From positions 1 through 40,582 of the IMG/VR virus record IMGVR_UViG_2778261692_000003: a DNA stretch of 40,582 nt; one strand, 5' to 3'. The translations under genes were made by a program, and so were the position numbers. The stretch is from a virus. Taxonomy: Duplodnaviria > Heunggongvirae > Uroviricota > Caudoviricetes. Below the pieces are notes generated by a model. The model was not told where the DNA came from and did not search any database. It worked only from the letters and a program-made list of their open reading frames with translations. Numbering within the stretch: the first letter of the stretch is position 1; every line of letters begins with the position of its first letter. Positions 29,708-34,358 of this stretch are shown piece by piece.

Positions 29708-29786
29708 GTGGATTGATCCAGTAATGACCTCAGAATTCCATCTGGATTTGTTCAGAACGCTCGGTTGCCGCCGGGCGTTTTTTATT
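29708..29786 (+). ncRNA. oop: oop antisense RNA (anti-cII)
   Basis: GATTGATCCAGTAATGACCTCAGAA.TCCATCTGGATTTGTTCAGAACGCTCGGTTGCCGCCGGGCGTTTTTTATT is near-identical to lambda oop. The -10 CATAAT lies at 29695-29700. The terminator is CGCTCGG/CCGGGCG plus a T-run. It overlaps the cII 3' end. Confidence 0.8.
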
Positions 29787-30023
29787 GGTGAGAATCGAAG
29801 CAACTTGTCGTGCCAATCGAGCCATATCGTCGTCAACGACGCCCCATTCAAGAACAGCAAGCAGCATTGAGAACTTTGGAATCCAATCCCTCTTCCACCT
29901 GCTGATCTGCGACTTATCAACTCCCACAGCTTCCGCTGTCTTCTCAGTTCCAAGCATTGCGATTTTGTTAAGCAACGCACTCTCGATTCTTAGAGCCTCG
30001 TTGCGTTTGTTTGCACGAACCAT
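29730..30023 (-). CDS. cII: Transcriptional activator cII (lambda)
   Basis: 97 aa from the ATG at 30023: MVRANKRNEALRIESALLNKIAMLGTEKTAEAVGVDKSQISRWKRDWIPKF... This is essentially identical to lambda CII. Confidence 0.97.
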   Translation of the reverse strand: MVRANKRNEALRIESALLNKIAMLGTEKTAEAVGVDKSQISRWKRDWIPKFSMLLAVLEWGVVDDDMARLARQVASILTNKKRPAATERSEQIQMEF

Positions 30024-30033
30024 ATGTAAGTAT
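30001..30033 (+). promoter_or_regulatory. PRE (cII-activated establishment promoter)
   Basis: TTGCGTTTGTTTGC (TTGC-N6-TTGC), then 13 nt, then AAGTAT, inside the cII 5' end as in lambda. Confidence 0.8.
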
Positions 30034-30081
30034 TTCCTTAACAAATAAGAAGTTATGCGCATCAACTTATGCGCGTTGTAT

Positions 30082-30125
30082 TCCCGCATTTCGGCGGGAA
30101 TGAGGACCATGACTGTTAAAGAGCG
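30082..30125 (-). promoter_or_regulatory. nutR (boxA + boxB)
   Basis: On the minus strand, boxA is CGCTCTTTAACA and boxB is TCCCGC-CGAAAT-GCGGGA, directly after the cro stop. boxB is identical to the one in nutL. Confidence 0.8.
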
Positions 30126-30132
30126 GTGTTAC

Positions 30133-30357
30133 TTATGCTGCCTGATTCGGTTTTGGAAACAGGTGTGGCAAATCGGGGCGAATTTCGTAAGCCTTGATCT
30201 GCCCTCCAGTGGCGTTAACGATGGCGGTAACTTTCTCTGGAGAGACCAATCCGCCTTTCAGCCATTTGTGTACTGCTGGCTGCGTTACACCACACTTGTC
30301 GGCAAGGCGCTTTTGGCTACCGACAATTTTCAAGGCTCGTTGAATTACTAAATTCAT
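30133..30357 (-). CDS. cro: Cro-type repressor (HTH, YdaS/Cro-like)
   Basis: 74 aa from the ATG at 30357, with AGAGG 7 nt upstream. The HTH reads SQKRLADKCGVTQPAVHKWL. It is the first gene of the rightward operon, divergent from cI. Confidence 0.8.
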   Translation of the reverse strand: MNLVIQRALKIVGSQKRLADKCGVTQPAVHKWLKGGLVSPEKVTAIVNATGGQIKAYEIRPDLPHLFPKPNQAA

Positions 30358-30383
30358 GAGCATACCTCTTGTGGTCATTGATT

Positions 30384-30456
30384 ATAACCAAAGATAACTC
30401 AAGTTATAAAAAATAGCAATAACCTTTGTTATTTTACTTTGGATAACCGTAGTTAT
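30384..30456. promoter_or_regulatory. OR operator region with PR and PRM
   Basis: Three ATAAC-N4-GTTAT inverted repeats lie at 30394-30407, 30419-30432 and 30443-30456, with centres 24-25 bp apart. There is also a half-site at 30384-30388. The PR -10 TATAAT is on the minus strand at 30382-30387. A possible PRM -10 TATAGA lies at 30454-30459, which would give a leaderless cI mRNA. Confidence 0.75.
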
Positions 30457-30468
30457 AGATTTGTGGGT

Positions 30469-31176
30469 ATGAAAACATTCGCAGAAAGACTAAATGCAGC
30501 CATGAGCTCAGCTGGGGTATCACAATCACAGCTTGCTGACATGGTTGGAATATCTCAGCCAGCCATACAGAAGATGTCGTCCGGTAAAACAAACGGATCT
30601 CGCAAGATGGTTGAATTAGCCAATGCTTTAAAAGTGCGCCCTGAATGGCTTAGTTCTGGTATTGGTGAAATGAGGGATGGTGCACATGAAGAACCATCCA
30701 ATGTCCGTGAGTCATCTTTAAAAGCTGTGGTATGGGAAGACATTAAAAGAAACGATGACGAGTTTGTTGCGTTGCCTCTTCTTAACGTTTCGCTTTCAGC
30801 TGGAAGCGGTAGCTGCGAGCTAGAGGAATCATCGGAGTTCTCTTTGGTTTTCAGAAAGCACTATCTGAAAAAGATGGGAGTATCTGAAAGATCAGCCAAG
30901 CTAGTTAGGGTTGTAGGGCAAAGCATGGAACCAACGCTTCACGATGGCGATGTTGTTGGTGTTAACACGCAAGATACCACAATCAGAGATGGTAAAACCT
31001 ACGCTATTTGCCAGTCTGATTTGTTACGAGTAAAAACATTAATCGCCACCCCTACATCGGTGATAATCAGATCAATAAATCGCGAAGAGTACCCGGATGA
31101 AGTAATGGATAGAGATGAATTTCATGAAACCGTAAGGATTATTGGCAGAGTATTCTGGTCGTCTCATAGTTGGTAA
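30469..31176 (+). CDS. cI: CI-type prophage repressor (HTH_XRE + S24 LexA-like autopeptidase)
   Basis: 235 aa from the ATG at 30469. The HTH reads SQSQLADMVGISQPAIQKM. An Ala-Gly cleavage site lies in SLSAGSG. The catalytic Ser is in GQSMEPT and the catalytic Lys in LRVKTL. Confidence 0.9.
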   Translation: MKTFAERLNAAMSSAGVSQSQLADMVGISQPAIQKMSSGKTNGSRKMVELANALKVRPEWLSSGIGEMRDGAHEEPSNVRESSLKAVVWEDIKRNDDEFVALPLLNVSLSAGSGSCELEESSEFSLVFRKHYLKKMGVSERSAKLVRVVGQSMEPTLHDGDVVGVNTQDTTIRDGKTYAICQSDLLRVKTLIATPTSVIIRSINREEYPDEVMDRDEFHETVRIIGRVFWSSHSW

Positions 31177-31216: not shown

Positions 31217-31513
31217 ATGGAATTTCTGACAGTTTTTGTTGTTGTTTTGGTCATCATTCTTTTTGTTTTGCTAAGCATTAGCAAAAAGCTATCTCAAATG
31301 ATTGAACATAGCTCTAATCGAGCAAAAGAAGAAGAGCATCTAATTGATATAAAAGAGATTCTCTCTGATATAAAAATCACATTAGATGAAATAAAATACA
31401 CAACAGATCTAATTGAACAGTATAAAATACCAACCCCAAACGAGAGAAAAGCAATAGATCAATATCGTATTGACTTAGAAATCGACGAAATGCTAAGCAA
31501 TAGAAAGGACTAA
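31217..31513 (+). CDS. Single-pass membrane protein of unknown function in the rex/BstA position (lysogen-expressed moron candidate)
   Basis: 98 aa with GGAGGG just upstream, starting 41 nt after the cI stop with no intervening terminator. The N-terminal TM is FLTVFVVVLVIILFVLLSI followed by KK. The C-terminal part is acidic and helical. Very low GC. A strong terminator follows. Confidence 0.7.
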   Translation: MEFLTVFVVVLVIILFVLLSISKKLSQMIEHSSNRAKEEEHLIDIKEILSDIKITLDEIKYTTDLIEQYKIPTPNERKAIDQYRIDLEIDEMLSNRKD

Positions 31514-31543
31514 AAACACCCGGCCTCAGTGCCGGGTTTTTCT
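31512..31543 (+). terminator. Intrinsic terminator ending the cI-moron unit
   Basis: ACCCGGC-CTCAGT-GCCGGGT followed by TTTTTCTT. The preceding A-run makes it potentially bidirectional. Confidence 0.85.
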
Positions 31544-31667
31544 TACCCTGCCGTTCACCACCCAATCAACCATCCTCAGCATAGACAAGCATCAAGCCAA
31601 AGGTAACACCTTCACCCCGCACGCAAGCCCTCAAACACCAATCAATCAGCAACATTTACAAAAATAA

Positions 31668-31753
31668 AATACCTTTGTTATCCATCACTTATAACTTATT
31701 TACCACAAAATATAAATTAGGTTATTGACCACACCTATAACCTAAGTTATCTT
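31668..31753 (+). promoter_or_regulatory. OL operators and PL promoter
   Basis: PL has -35 TTGACC (31725-31730), a 17-nt spacer and -10 TATCTT (31748-31753). The operators are ATAAC-CTAA-GTTAT (31737-31750), ATAAA-TTAG-GTTAT (31712-31725) and the weaker AATAC-CTTT-GTTAT (31668-31681). Confidence 0.75.
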
Positions 31754-31799
31754 TAAGCCATCAGCAGGACGCTGGAAGCCAAACGGAACAGATTGGCAG

Positions 31800-31840
31800 G
31801 CTCTTTAACATTGATGGGATTGTCCCGCCGAAATGCGGGA
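31800..31840 (+). promoter_or_regulatory. nutL (boxA + boxB)
   Basis: boxA GCTCTTTAACA (31800-31810) and boxB TCCCGCCGAAATGCGGGA (31823-31840), identical to the nutR boxB. Confidence 0.8.
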
Positions 31841-31947
31841 ACCAAAGAGTAGTTGGCTTTGGGGTGACGTGAAGTGCAGCTGCACGACGGCAACCGGAAG
31901 ATAAGCACCCGGCGCGTCACCGCCAAAGTCAATCATCGGAGGTCAAC

Positions 31948-32220
31948 ATGACAGTAGTCATTACATATCTGGCTGACGATAACGCCAGAAATCGCCGCAG
32001 AGCACGCAGACAGGCTCAACGTGAACAGGCAATGCAAGAACAGCGATTGGCGCGAAAAATTGCGCTAAAGCTCTCTGGTTGCGTCAGAGCAGACAAAGCA
32101 GCATCACTAGGAAGCCTTTGCTGCAAGAAGGCAGATGAATGCAGTGGAAGTATTTGCCTGCCAAACGTAGCCGTTTACGCGGCAGGCTACCGGAAATCAA
32201 AACAATTGACGGCGAGGTAA
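31948..32220 (+). CDS. N-type antiterminator (P22 gp24 family)
   Basis: 90 aa. An arginine-rich motif NARNRRRARRQAQREQ lies near the N-terminus. The C-terminus LPNVAVYAAGYRKSKQLTAR parallels the P22 gp24 C-terminus. GGAGG lies upstream. Confidence 0.85.
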   Translation: MTVVITYLADDNARNRRRARRQAQREQAMQEQRLARKIALKLSGCVRADKAASLGSLCCKKADECSGSICLPNVAVYAAGYRKSKQLTAR

Positions 32221-32222
32221 TT

Positions 32223-32585
32223 ATGGGTCAGGAAGAAAAATATGAGCTTAAAAAGCTCATTGAAGAAGACGCCATAGAAGAAATTGCAGCATTAACAACA
32301 GCTATAAAGAATATTAGGTATGCGCTAAATACGCTTATCTCCTCATGCGACAAAAATAGCAGGGAATTTTTGATACTTGGCGCAGCTCTAGGAATAGTTG
32401 ATGCGGCAACGCTTCACCTAATTACTCATGACAATATTCTTATTGAGCCGTATGAAACATTACTGCTTGTCAGGCAAAAAATGGCTGATGCCGCAGCAAA
32501 TGGAGACCTTCAACTTTACATCGACTTAAGGAAAGTATTAAGGCGAATGGTCAGAACTGAAGGAGATATCCCCCTGACAAAATAA
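32223..32585 (+). CDS. Hypothetical helical protein (120 aa), first gene of the N-cIII accessory island
   Basis: ATG at 32223 after GAGGTAATT, starting 3 nt after the N stop. Low GC. No recognisable motif. Confidence 0.6.
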   Translation: MGQEEKYELKKLIEEDAIEEIAALTTAIKNIRYALNTLISSCDKNSREFLILGAALGIVDAATLHLITHDNILIEPYETLLLVRQKMADAAANGDLQLYIDLRKVLRRMVRTEGDIPLTK

Positions 32586-32765
32586 GGGGGTGAGAGGATT
32601 TTACTATTTTCCTCGCTGTAGGGGTACACGAGAACCACCGAGCCTGATGTGGTTAAAAGACAGGCACAATCTTTACTACCGCAAGCCACGCAGTGAAATG
32701 GGTGTGACTTGTGTTGGTCGCCAGAAAATGAAATTAGGCAGCAAACCACTTATTTGAGGTGATAT

Positions 32766-33188
32766 ATGGAAGAACAAGCAAACAAGATTCTCGTAGAACT
32801 ACTGCAAAAAGCCAGCAATGGAATAGACGCGGCTGTTTCATTTAGCCAGGCACAGATTCCTGATGTTGTTCATCAGTTGCTAATATGGAGTTTTGTCCAT
32901 AGCGCACTTTCCCAAGTGACTGGGTTGTTGCTTTTAATTGCAGCAATAAAACTTCCTAGTTTTGCAAGAACGGCAAGAAATAATGGCGAGAGATGGACGT
33001 CTTTCGATGGATGTCCAAATGATGGATATTTTATATCTTCGTTTTATTACGATATATGCACCGTATTTGCTCCTGTATTTGGCTCAATTATTGGCGTTTC
33101 AATTATCGCCTTCAATTTCGAATGGTTGAAGATTTGGCTTGCACCTAAGTTATTCCTAATTGAATATGCAGCATCATTGGTTAAGTAA
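32766..33188 (+). CDS. Hypothetical inner-membrane protein (140 aa, 2-3 TM segments)
   Basis: TTATTTGAGGTGATAT precedes the ATG. Hydrophobic segments are LLIWSFVHSALSQVTGLLLLIAAI and ICTVFAPVFGSIIGVSIIAF. A terminator follows. Confidence 0.65.
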   Translation: MEEQANKILVELLQKASNGIDAAVSFSQAQIPDVVHQLLIWSFVHSALSQVTGLLLLIAAIKLPSFARTARNNGERWTSFDGCPNDGYFISSFYYDICTVFAPVFGSIIGVSIIAFNFEWLKIWLAPKLFLIEYAASLVK

Positions 33189-33192
33189 TTTC

Positions 33193-33218
33193 AGGCCGCA
33201 TAGTCGGCCTTTATTTTT
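33193..33218 (+). terminator. Intrinsic terminator
   Basis: AGGCCG-CATAGT-CGGCCT followed by TTATTTTT. Confidence 0.8.
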
Positions 33219-33266
33219 GGCATAAACAAGAGAATAAACACCGCACTGAATTATTTGAGGTGAGAT

Positions 33267-33737
33267 ATGACAAAATCATGGAGCGTACCTTTTCCTGAAT
33301 CAGAAACTGAACATGATGGAATGCCTGTTTTCTGGAGATTCCAGGCGACAGTTGAAGAAGATGGAATCAAAATATTCGCACTTCAATATATAGCTTTTCA
33401 TCAGACAGAGCATTATGCATGGTTGGTTCCTGCGCATTGGATTGTTAATTTTAAACCAACACCAAATCAGTGGTTACAGGAATGGAAACAAAGGAGAAAT
33501 AGATATGCAATTAAGAAAGTAGCAAAAAATGCAGAAAGATCTTTTGCATTCCCGACGAAGAAACTTGCCATTGAAAGTTTATTGCGCCGGAAGAAATACC
33601 ATTTAATGAGAATCAAACAAGATTTGGCTGTTGTATCAACTCTTGTTGATGGGATGAAGAATATTGATACATCAACACCAGATATTGAATATAACTTTGG
33701 ACACAACCAAGAAACAGAAAACTGGGTGTTTTATTAG
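33267..33737 (+). CDS. Hypothetical soluble Trp-rich protein (156 aa)
   Basis: TTATTTGAGGTGAGAT precedes the ATG, the same 13-nt RBS box as the preceding gene. Low GC. No recognisable motif. Confidence 0.65.
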   Translation: MTKSWSVPFPESETEHDGMPVFWRFQATVEEDGIKIFALQYIAFHQTEHYAWLVPAHWIVNFKPTPNQWLQEWKQRRNRYAIKKVAKNAERSFAFPTKKLAIESLLRRKKYHLMRIKQDLAVVSTLVDGMKNIDTSTPDIEYNFGHNQETENWVFY

Positions 33738-33841
33738 TACGAATAAGCACTGTGTATTCATTCCAACGAGTGAATACACGGAGCAATGTCGCTCATAACT
33801 AAACAGGAGCCGACTTGTTCTGATTATTGGAAATCTTCTTT

Positions 33842-33866
33842 GCCCTCCAGTGTGAGGGCCTTTTTA
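33842..33866 (+). terminator. Intrinsic terminator
   Basis: GCCCTC-CAGTGT-GAGGGC followed by CTTTTTAT. A separate 9-bp-stem hairpin without a T-run lies at 33752-33779. Confidence 0.7.
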
Positions 33867-33931
33867 TATGCATACCAATAACGCTTCACTCGAGGCGTTT
33901 TCGTTATGCATTCAAACAGAAGGAGCATCCT

Positions 33932-34102
33932 ATGCAACAGTTCGCTATTGCAGGGGCGGCATTGGTTCGCCCTTTCAACCCGATTTTATCGGTACAGCAT
34001 TCACGAAAAAATATTTTAACCGGAGCAGACTTTAAACAACCAAGAATGAAAAGTTTGCTCGAAAAGCTTTGGGATATTTTGAAACAACAAGGCCGTCCAT
34101 GA
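33932..34102 (+). CDS. CIII-like protein (FtsH inhibitor family), tentative
   Basis: 56 aa with GGAG 6 nt upstream. It starts MQQFAIAG, and the C-terminal KSLLEKLWDILKQQGRP resembles the ..SLLER....L.DIL.QPG.P core of lambda/P22 CIII. Its position before erf matches P22 c3. Confidence 0.5.
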   Translation: MQQFAIAGAALVRPFNPILSVQHSRKNILTGADFKQPRMKSLLEKLWDILKQQGRP

Positions 34103-34257
34103 GTTTTACAGATAACTGGTCAGACGAAGAATTCATTCGTCAGATGAAAGAATTAATCGGTAACGAAGGAGATATTCATGTCACTTGCAACCACAGTGAA
34201 GGAGAGCAAGTTACAGAGACGCGTGTACACGCAGAAAGCTCTCTGGTATCGCCATAA
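34099..34257 (+). CDS. Small acidic hypothetical ORF (kil/arf position), frame conflict with the next ORF
   Basis: 52 aa from an ATG that overlaps the previous stop (ATGA). It overlaps 34178-34348 by 80 nt in another frame, so at most one of the two may be fully real. Confidence 0.3.
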   Translation: MSFTDNWSDEEFIRQMKELIGNEGDIHVTCNHSEGEQVTETRVHAESSLVSP

Positions 34258-34348
34258 TGGCGACCGCGAAGGAATGCGGGTATGTCTTAATTTGTCCCGA
34301 GTCGAAGTATTAAATCAGCGTTATTTCCTTGGGCCATGTCCATTCTGA
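34178..34348 (+). CDS. Small basic hypothetical ORF (kil/arf position)
   Basis: 56 aa, translated by hand: MSLATTVKESKLQRRVYTQKALWYRHNGDREGMRVCLNLSRVEVLNQRYFLGPCPF. GAAGGAG lies 6 nt upstream. It ends 10 nt before erf. Confidence 0.35.
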   Translation: MSLATTVKESKLQRRVYTQKALWYRHNGDREGMRVCLNLSRVEVLNQRYFLGPCPF

Positions 34349-34358
34349 GAACAAACAT

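Follow-up and report, generated by a model that had tools for sequence, protein, structure and literature searches.

A box-bounded accessory slot of probable single-gene cassettes between N and cIII in a lambdoid phage genome

What fills the interval between the antitermination gene N and cIII in a lambdoid phage, and how did its contents come to be there? The question is raised by a phage of the class Caudoviricetes (IMG/VR record IMGVR_UViG_2778261692_000003), whose 40,582 nucleotides (nt) were analysed as one stretch, here termed the window. Its N-to-cIII interval (32223-33866), the slot studied here, belongs to a P22/lambda-like phage genome in which the leftward early operon runs on the + strand. 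The slot holds three open reading frames (ORFs) of 120, 140 and 156 amino acids (aa), whose sizes and coordinates in a first-pass annotation of the sequence were borne out, as was its description of a low-GC island (39.4% GC for 32223-33866, against 46.9% for the whole window). We find that the region is probably a hypervariable accessory slot of the PL operon, the positional equivalent of lambda sieB-orf28-ral, made up of three independently mobile single-gene cassettes (hkaQ, ORF2 with its terminator, and gp45). The type of locus is known, being ordinary lambdoid mosaicism, all three genes are already catalogued as hypothetical proteins, and our results leave the current understanding of lambdoid genome organization unchanged. 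What they provide is an exact map of one lambdoid swap slot, with its left junction, its right junction, two nested cassettes and two scars:

31948-32220, + strand: N antiterminator, 90 aa, HK620 type (Pfam N_peptide, 1.6e-14; phrog_271), left anchor
32223-32585, + strand: ORF1, HkaQ, 120 aa (phrog_7374)
32587-32684, − strand: orphaned sieB/hkaP upstream (promoter) region, from alignment with lambda, P22, HK620 and Stx1a_10051
32672-32757, + strand: 3′-end remnant of a second, lambda/CUS-3-type N gene (ending YYRKPRSEMGVTCVGRQKMKLGSKPLI and stop), matching the final 86 nt of CUS-3 N at 97% identity
32750-32768, + strand: box copy 1, comprising CTT ATT TGA (Leu-Ile-stop of N), Shine–Dalgarno sequence GAGGTGA and the ORF2 ATG; left boundary of the variable slot
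32766-33188, + strand: ORF2, 140 aa (PHROG 3054)
33193-33218 (hairpin 33193-33210), + strand: intrinsic terminator of the ORF2 cassette, with T-run; −9.7 kcal/mol, z −2.8
33232-33248, + strand: repeat GAATAAACACCGCACTG, left copy bracketing the ORF3 cassette, from alignment
33251-33269, + strand: box copy 2, Shine–Dalgarno sequence and ATG of ORF3
33267-33737, + strand: ORF3, HK97 gp45, 156 aa (phrog_1636)
33741-33784 (hairpin 33747-33784), + strand: right slot boundary, GAATAA plus a conserved hairpin with a 14-bp stem; −21.7 kcal/mol, z −8.55
33842-33866 (hairpin 33842-33859), + strand: homologue of HK620 tL2A, with T-run; −10.7 kcal/mol, z −2.9
33880-33899, + strand: homologue of HK620 tL2B, a third terminator-like hairpin
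33932-34102, + strand: cIII, right anchor gene (phrog_550, 2.7e-22)

The left junction is defined by a repeat. The 13-nt box TTATTTGAGGTGA, previously noted at 32750-32762 and 33251-33263, is present at both sites and extends to 19 nt, TTATTTGAGGTGAnATATG, which include the start codon of the following gene (copies at 32750-32768 and 33251-33269). The two occurrences compare with 0.04 expected, and a count of two was reached in 0 of 100 shuffled sequences. We collected 127 box occurrences from IMG/VR contigs, six phage loci and the window, and most of them are preceded by AAA ATG AAA TTA GGC AGC AAA CCA CTT ATT TGA, which reads KMKLGSKPLI and stop. Because this peptide is the C terminus common to several N alleles, the box corresponds to the final two codons and stop of N, a Shine–Dalgarno sequence and the ATG of the next gene, and its conservation thus has a functional reason. 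The Shine–Dalgarno element, GAGGTGA, is an almost full complement of the 3′ end of 16S rRNA.

Downstream of the box, the genes change. At least 13 unrelated ORF families begin at the box ATG (120 occurrences on 119 IMG/VR contigs, among the matches listed), including lambda orf28 in 52, gp45 in 33 and the ORF2 family in 4 of these 120 matches. A 107-aa family is orf184 of Silas et al., which triggers the gop-beta-cII abortive system and is described as lying in one accessory region with ral (Silas et al., bioRxiv 10.1101/2023.04.06.535777). The remaining families are PHROGs without assigned function, so that a single 19-nt junction serves at least 13 unrelated families of which one has a published phenotype. 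The lambda copy upstream of orf28, CTATTTAAGGTGATATATG, differs from the box by 2 mismatches, and the context GAATAAACACnGCACTGAA followed by box and gp45 recurs in 8 of the 127 occurrences. The box is thus conserved at a module junction although the flanking genes differ between phages, and sequence comparison strongly supports its reading as a cassette junction. It resembles in this respect the boundary (linker) sequences of lambdoid mosaicism (Susskind & Botstein 1978; Clark et al. 2001, both as cited in PMC3029335) and the phage accessory regions of Silas et al., in which short conserved junctions and many alternative genes are found between conserved flanks. The element named 'bsq5' in the CUS-3 record is different from the box, being a 502-bp stretch between cI and N.

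A mosaic map, drawn by blastn against CUS-3, HK620, HK97, Stx1a_10051, 611R6, H-19B and further contigs, shows how the cassettes are set into the operon. Relative to HK97, H-19B, Stx1a_10051 and 611R6, the segment 32769-33250 (ORF2 and its terminator) is an insertion, and both boxes of the window align to the single copy in these phages. In HK97 and 933W, gp45 directly follows N and a short N remnant, whereas in the window the ORF2 cassette stands in between. These box-flanked insertions, together with the many families at the box ATG, bear out the earlier suggestion of cassettes sharing a junction sequence. CUS-3 has one box copy on each side of its ral segment, and the gene for the ORF2 homologue ECRS218_0047 comes after ral. 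Contigs in which ORF2 follows directly on an intact lambda/P22-type N match the stretch 32672-34349 at 99.7-99.8% identity. The pairwise breakpoints fall on the box, on GGGGTRAGAGG and on GAATAA..GCACTG, a correlative placement that holds within the resolution of blastn.

The right junction is marked by a repeat and a hairpin. The ORF3 cassette is bracketed by GAATAA(ACACC)GCACTG at 33232-33248 and 33741-33752, and in CUS-3, HK620 and contig L139, all lacking ORF3, the left copy joins the downstream backbone and hairpin directly. The hairpin at 33747-33784 is identical in 100 of the 116 copies in the fetched loci, with variation mainly in the loop, and at least six different upstream contexts precede it, every one ending in CGAATAA. 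Lambda has the identical hairpin just 3′ of ral (NC_001416 34008-34045). Early accessory genes could therefore be collected simply from prophage and metagenome data by taking the interval from box to hairpin. No T-run follows the stem, and the hairpin is unannotated in the HK620, HK97, CUS-3 and lambda records; its role could lie in the processing or stability of RNA, or it could mark a hotspot of recombination.

The terminators divide between cassette and backbone. The first-pass annotation gave ORF2 and ORF3 a terminator each, which holds for ORF2 and fails for ORF3. The terminator at 33193-33218 occurs with ORF2 in CUS-3 and L139, both without ORF3, and thus travels with its gene. That at 33842-33866 lies behind the conserved hairpin and is common to HK620 (as tL2A), CUS-3 and L139, all of which lack ORF3, and therefore belongs to the backbone. 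This element and the one at 33880-33899 are the GC-rich hairpins with U-run expected of tL terminators, and are homologous to the annotated tL2A and tL2B. As for the features of a moron, GC is low (36-39% against 47%) and a terminator accompanies ORF2, that downstream of ORF3 being backbone, but a crude consensus scan found no promoter-like site 5′ of ORF2 or ORF3. In H-19B and Stx1a_10051, roughly 340 bp of extra sequence lie right after the tL2A-like terminator (L006 2161-2500), annotated in H-19B as similar to P22 gene 17. This H-19B '17' segment is absent from the window, where it would fall at the 33866/33870 joint; the joint is thus another cassette junction.

Comparison with the classical phages places the slot. 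Genes of the sieB, orf28, ral and gene 17 kind occupy the same interval elsewhere (sieB, orf28 and ral in lambda; sieB, ral and gene 17 in P22; ral in CUS-3), which upholds the earlier comparison with a ral/sieB-type accessory slot. The orders N-sieB-orf28-ral-(hairpin)-tL2-ea10-cIII of lambda and 24-sieB-ral-orf78-orf87-17-c3 of P22 put these genes at the same operon position as the slot, under the same control logic of PL, nutL, N and internal terminators. The sequence upstream of sieB in both phages is nearly identical to that of the window, and lambda shares the left junction (the box) as well as the right-hand hairpin. Unlike lambda and P22, however, the window has no sieB, orf28, ral, ea10 or gene 17, its sieB-type gene being deleted with the promoter region kept, and its N is the 90-aa HK620-type allele followed by hkaQ. 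This part corresponds to the hkaQ-hkaP module of HK620, with about 95% identical DNA over N-hkaQ and the same 2-nt spacing between the genes, but hkaP, the putative exclusion gene on the opposite strand in HK620, is absent, a deletion shared with E. coli 631.

All three ORFs of the slot lie on the + strand, in the orientation of PL and flanked by N and cIII, and gene content differs among related phages while these flanks stay conserved. The neighbourhood comparison across P22-like and lambdoid phages that had been proposed as a check thus yielded variable genes between a conserved box and a conserved hairpin. Each of the three genes is absent from some related phages, as the comparisons with CUS-3, HK620 and HK97 show, and HK620 stays viable with a reporter inserted in the hkaP/hkaQ intergenic region (PMC4506075). 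None of the phage records searched and none of 5,426 complete E. coli genomes holds 80% of 31900-34300 in one place, so the three-gene combination is new among these records, although each piece is known.

ORF3 is 98.7-99.4% identical to HK97 gp45 and to its 933W counterpart (PHROG 1636), sits behind the same box as they do, and is found at 99% identity in 63 phage records, mostly Shiga toxin (Stx) phages including 933W. The family comprises 33 clusters, of which the named ones are all from Enterobacterales of several genera and the full-length ones are 54-99% identical. The protein has been described as Trp-rich and soluble, in agreement with its 7 Trp, its basic isoelectric point of 9.1 and its lack of a transmembrane (TM) segment. 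In 24 aligned sequences, 27 columns are invariant, including five Trp and R79, K84, K87, R91, R107 and K109. No Pfam family matched any of the 24 homologues, the gp45 profile is unrelated to P22 gp17 (hhalign probability 0.1), and the sole hit of ORF3 in PADLOC-DB 2.0 was an insignificant one to Cas1_II (E 0.016). In a Pectobacterium prophage, the gp45 homologue adjoins xis-int and not N, which indicates that gp45 moves independently.

ORF1 forms a module with N. The N-hkaQ module (31660-32597) shares 94.9% DNA identity with HK620, and ORF1 is 98% identical to HK620 hkaQ over aa 30-120. It starts 2 nt past the N stop, with its Shine–Dalgarno sequence inside the last N codons. ORF1 is a near-orphan, with 5 clusters in 5.8e9 proteins, and an exhaustive phmmer search found 6 matches of HkaQ in 1.84e9 representatives. 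One diverged homologue (P0156, 63% identical) is full length, has the same Met start and likewise begins 2 nt after a 90-aa N. The HkaQ protein, acidic by computation, is probably helical. A longer, 148-aa ORF1 beginning at 32139 was considered and rejected, as the 63% homologue begins at the Met of the 120-aa form, which has a good Shine–Dalgarno sequence. In some NCBI records this 148-aa form (32139-32585), which overlaps the last part of N in a different frame, carries the name 'antitermination N domain protein', and the extension is probably an annotation artefact. The N gene (31948-32220) is itself a mosaic: its residues 1-66 resemble those of phages N7 and Gally (92-94%), and residues 66-90 resemble N of 933W and other Stx2 phages (88-91%). 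A full-length match to N is found in only 17 phage records and hkaQ in just 7, counts on which a strict coupling of the 90-aa N to HkaQ was rejected.

When would these genes be expressed? The control elements of the operon lie upstream of the slot:

31725-31753: PL-like promoter, from a consensus promoter scan
about 31799-31840: nutL homologue, by homology to the HK620 annotation

Among the eight other contigs listed with an identical ORF2 protein, ORF2 begins 8 nt after the N stop in five, and gp45 follows ORF2 at 78 nt in seven. Given these spacings, and as no promoter-like site was found 5′ of ORF2 or ORF3, ORF1-3 probably belong to the PL transcript, and by analogy with lambda their most likely time of action is early lytic growth, with PL and N in control. 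In such a scheme hkaQ and ORF2, which precede the first terminator, would be produced along with N, whereas gp45, beyond that terminator, would need N antitermination; the tL terminators would stop transcription without N and be read through with it, as in lambda, and all three genes would be repressed in the lysogen. The cassettes themselves would be swapped, inserted and deleted by recombination at the 11-19-nt junctions, between co-infecting phages and prophages.

The accessory genes expressed early from PL, namely Ral, gene 17, Abc, Gam, Kil and orf184, have host-takeover or counter-defence functions. ORF1-3 may be dispensable factors of this type, like their slot-mates Ral, gene 17 and orf184, an assignment of low certainty that draws on position, operon logic and conservation pattern. 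With gp45 in most Stx-converting phages, and relatives of ORF2 in many virulent and temperate phages, these two are reasonable candidates for a counter-defence screen.

Several points weigh against this account. Short junction repeats are also expected if cassettes carry their own flank, and the repeats do not prove recombination inside the box. The order of transcription is taken from lambda biology, and the crude consensus scan that called no sigma-70-like promoter upstream of ORF2 or ORF3 could miss weak or activator-dependent ones. ORF1-3 have no match in Pfam, NCBIfam, PADLOC or PDB (by sequence and profile), nor by Foldseek for the models of ORF2 and gp45. The AlphaFold2 model of gp45, built from 24 sequences, is unreliable and unusable (predicted local distance difference test, pLDDT, 55.5), and its BFVD Foldseek search returned only borderline matches to unnamed phage proteins. 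Finally, a 121-aa relative of ORF2, SPN9CC AEW47744 (orf47, UDP0047), was included in a 200-gene screen whose authors mention orf47 neither in the main text nor among the genes for which a phenotype is listed (Silas et al., bioRxiv 10.1101/2023.04.06.535777).

ORF2 is the occupant whose pattern of conservation says most about possible function. It is 94% identical to CUS-3 ECRS218_0047 and has 479 homologue clusters. The annotated '2-3 TM' segments resolve to two hydrophobic ones, at aa 43-66 and 95-118, and two such segments are found in 103 of 105 homologues. Mean pairwise identity is 85% over residues 1-41 and 89% over 118-140, falling to 30% in TM1, 15% in the loop and 17% in TM2. CUS-3 ECRS218_0047, SPN9CC AEW47744 and PHROG 3054 share with ORF2 the two TM segments and the conserved motifs at the N and C termini. 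Unlike these relatives, however, the window has another allele of the central TM hairpin and loop, with a length of 140 aa against 121 and 149 aa. Phages as different as a Vibrio phage, an rV5-like coliphage and an N4-like Salmonella phage preserve the end motifs in their protein sequences, which points to functional constraint on the ends. Invariant positions of ORF2 are F26, P32, Q37-L39, W41, W77 and A126-K128. At the DNA level the gene is a mosaic: against the 121-aa and 149-aa alleles of other lambdoid contigs, identity is 93-100% at the 5′ end and 73-100% at the 3′ end, whereas the core (32886-33125) cannot be aligned. As lambdoid alleles are near-identical at the ends and unalignable between them, the core is swapped as a unit. 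The AlphaFold2 model (105 sequences; pLDDT 71) has a long helix, a loop and two helices; Foldseek found nothing in PDB at E<=0.001 and only uncharacterized relatives in BFVD. Comparison of the ORF2 profile with lambda SieB (hhalign probability 0.3) and with HkaP (0.2) gave no relation.

ORF2 could on this pattern be an inner-membrane hairpin protein in which conserved juxtamembrane ends carry the activity and a swappable core sets specificity. One tentative, rather unlikely extension makes it a lytic-cycle membrane factor, which would act either like T4 Imm and Sp, by excluding superinfecting phages, or like rII against Rex, by neutralizing a membrane-acting abortive infection (Abi) system, with the TM hairpin setting specificity. 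Ends conserved across very different phages around a core that is unalignable between otherwise 93-100% identical alleles would suit the maintenance of many alleles, and the placement in the early operon and the occurrence in virulent as well as temperate phages fit too. ORF2 has no homology to a characterized exclusion or anti-Abi protein, though, the genes reported with a phenotype by Silas et al. do not include its screened relative, and TM segments tolerate substitution, so that part of the variability may reflect low constraint. More speculative, and doubtful, is the general form of the idea, in which PHROG 3054 would be an unrecognized, widespread inner-membrane specificity factor: the QIPDVxxQLLxW and WLKIWLAPKLYLIEYAASLVK ends would carry the activity, and the swapped TM hairpin and loop would pick the blocked phage or the membrane-acting host defence. 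If true, lambdoid phages would use the slot to exchange specificities for exclusion or for countering abortive infection.

The slot might instead be a prophage-expressed island of defence or superinfection exclusion, its genes made in the lysogen as sieB or rex are. This is the direction in which the first-pass annotation leaned, with exclusion or anti-restriction functions for the three genes, and it has something to draw on, as the slot holds sieB in lambda and P22 and the putative exclusion gene hkaP in HK620, its GC is low, and ORF2 is a membrane protein with a hypervariable core. We consider it improbable. Both sieB and hkaP lie on the opposite strand with a promoter of their own, whereas ORF1-3 are co-oriented with PL and no promoter was found for them; ORF2 abuts the N stop in relatives, and with no promoter separating it from PL, exclusion expressed in the lysogen becomes unlikely. 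Homologues of ORF2 also occur in strictly virulent phages, and in the window the sieB-type gene itself is deleted. The functional claim found no support in the searches either: none of Ral, SieB, HkaP and P22 gp17 proved homologous to ORF1-3, searches of Pfam and PHROG returned no Ral or sie family for them, hhalign shows no relation to SieB or HkaP, and PADLOC gave no match. The profile, structure and PADLOC checks suggested with that claim were thus carried out, with no informative match for any of the proteins, and no functional study of hkaQ, gp45 or ORF2 was found in the literature by accession number or gene name. Early lytic action from PL therefore stays the preferred reading.

There remains the gap of 180 nt between ORF1 and ORF2, which carries the marks of its history. 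The block at about 32608-32684 is nearly invariant and is found upstream of sieB in lambda and P22 and of hkaP in HK620; 32596-32628 aligns, on the opposite strand, with the annotated sieB promoter and RNA start site of P22virB-3, and a −10-like TAAAAT lies at 32598-32603 on the − strand. Among the ORFs of the window, no sieB or hkaP gene follows this promoter homologue on the − strand. In HK620 and Stx1a_10051 the 11-nt motif GGGGTRAGAGG stands on either side of a 533-bp segment with hkaP; the window lacks this segment and retains a deletion joint at 32587-32597. The hkaP-less arrangement recurs in three complete E. coli genomes. Upstream of sieB/hkaP in lambda, P22 and HK620, CTGTAGGGGT is present twice, about 36 nt apart (window region 32587-32624), a pair that may have a regulatory function in the sieB promoter region, and the hkaP deletion of the window took out its left copy.

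The other half of the gap is the N remnant. The stretch 32672-32757 matches N genes by tblastn, its homologue in E. coli 631 is labelled 'regulator, incomplete' by the NCBI Prokaryotic Genome Annotation Pipeline (PGAP), and metagenomic HkaQ relatives hold a complete second N gene at this place. The Logan contigs L130-L133, which carry P0156, have two N-type genes in one PL operon, in the order 90-aa N_peptide gene with HkaQ homologue, 94-aa gene on the opposite strand, and full 98-aa Phage_N_antitermin gene; the 94-aa gene is in the sieB/hkaP position and has a weak GhoS match. The N remnant of the window appears to descend from an arrangement of this kind. From these alignments, the most fitting reading of the gap is a scar left by two recombination events. 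In one, a module of the 90-aa N, hkaQ and possibly hkaP would have been placed upstream of the resident N, which decayed to 86 nt; in the other, the sieB-like hkaP would have been deleted between the GGGGTRAGAGG repeats, leaving its promoter region.

Could the gap nonetheless be functional, with the orphaned sieB-type promoter firing leftward to give an RNA antisense to hkaQ and N, or with a small RNA encoded in it? The retained homology to the P22 sieB promoter, the good −10 (TAAAAT) on the − strand and the same hkaP-less layout in the three E. coli genomes speak for it, and of the earlier proposal of hairpins with a promoter or small RNA, the two small hairpins do exist (−7.2 and −5.6 kcal/mol), as does a sieB promoter homologue, on the opposite strand. 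Signs of a structured RNA did not appear: shuffled sequence folds as well as the 180 nt on both strands (z −0.03 and −0.54), and no Rfam family matches the gap, results on which a small RNA in the gap was rejected. As the consensus scan called no promoter there and recombination scarring accounts fully for the sequence, we hold a regulatory role to be very improbable.

That the ORFs are spurious or decaying and the island non-functional filler is scarcely credible: families and structures without match and the near-orphan status of HkaQ would suit it, but each ORF has a strong Shine–Dalgarno sequence, gp45 and ORF2 are intact across genera and phage types, and the 63% HkaQ homologue keeps full length and start.

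Outside the slot, the neighbouring genes are those of a lambdoid genome, with Erf, SSB and Abc2 downstream of cIII and the immunity region on the other side of N:

29730-30110, − strand: cII
30133-30378, − strand: cro
30439-31176: cI

Directly after cI and before PL lies a further ORF of 98 aa (31217-31513; 30.6% GC; phrog_18389), followed by a bidirectional terminator at 31518-31537. Its product has one N-terminal TM segment and an acidic, coiled-coil-like tail, and only weak matches, to ZorB/MotB (E 0.0043) and to DUF5385. The ORF occupies the position of rexAB and hkaS and is therefore probably co-transcribed with cI in the lysogen, which makes it a better candidate than ORF1-3 for a prophage-expressed exclusion or defence gene.

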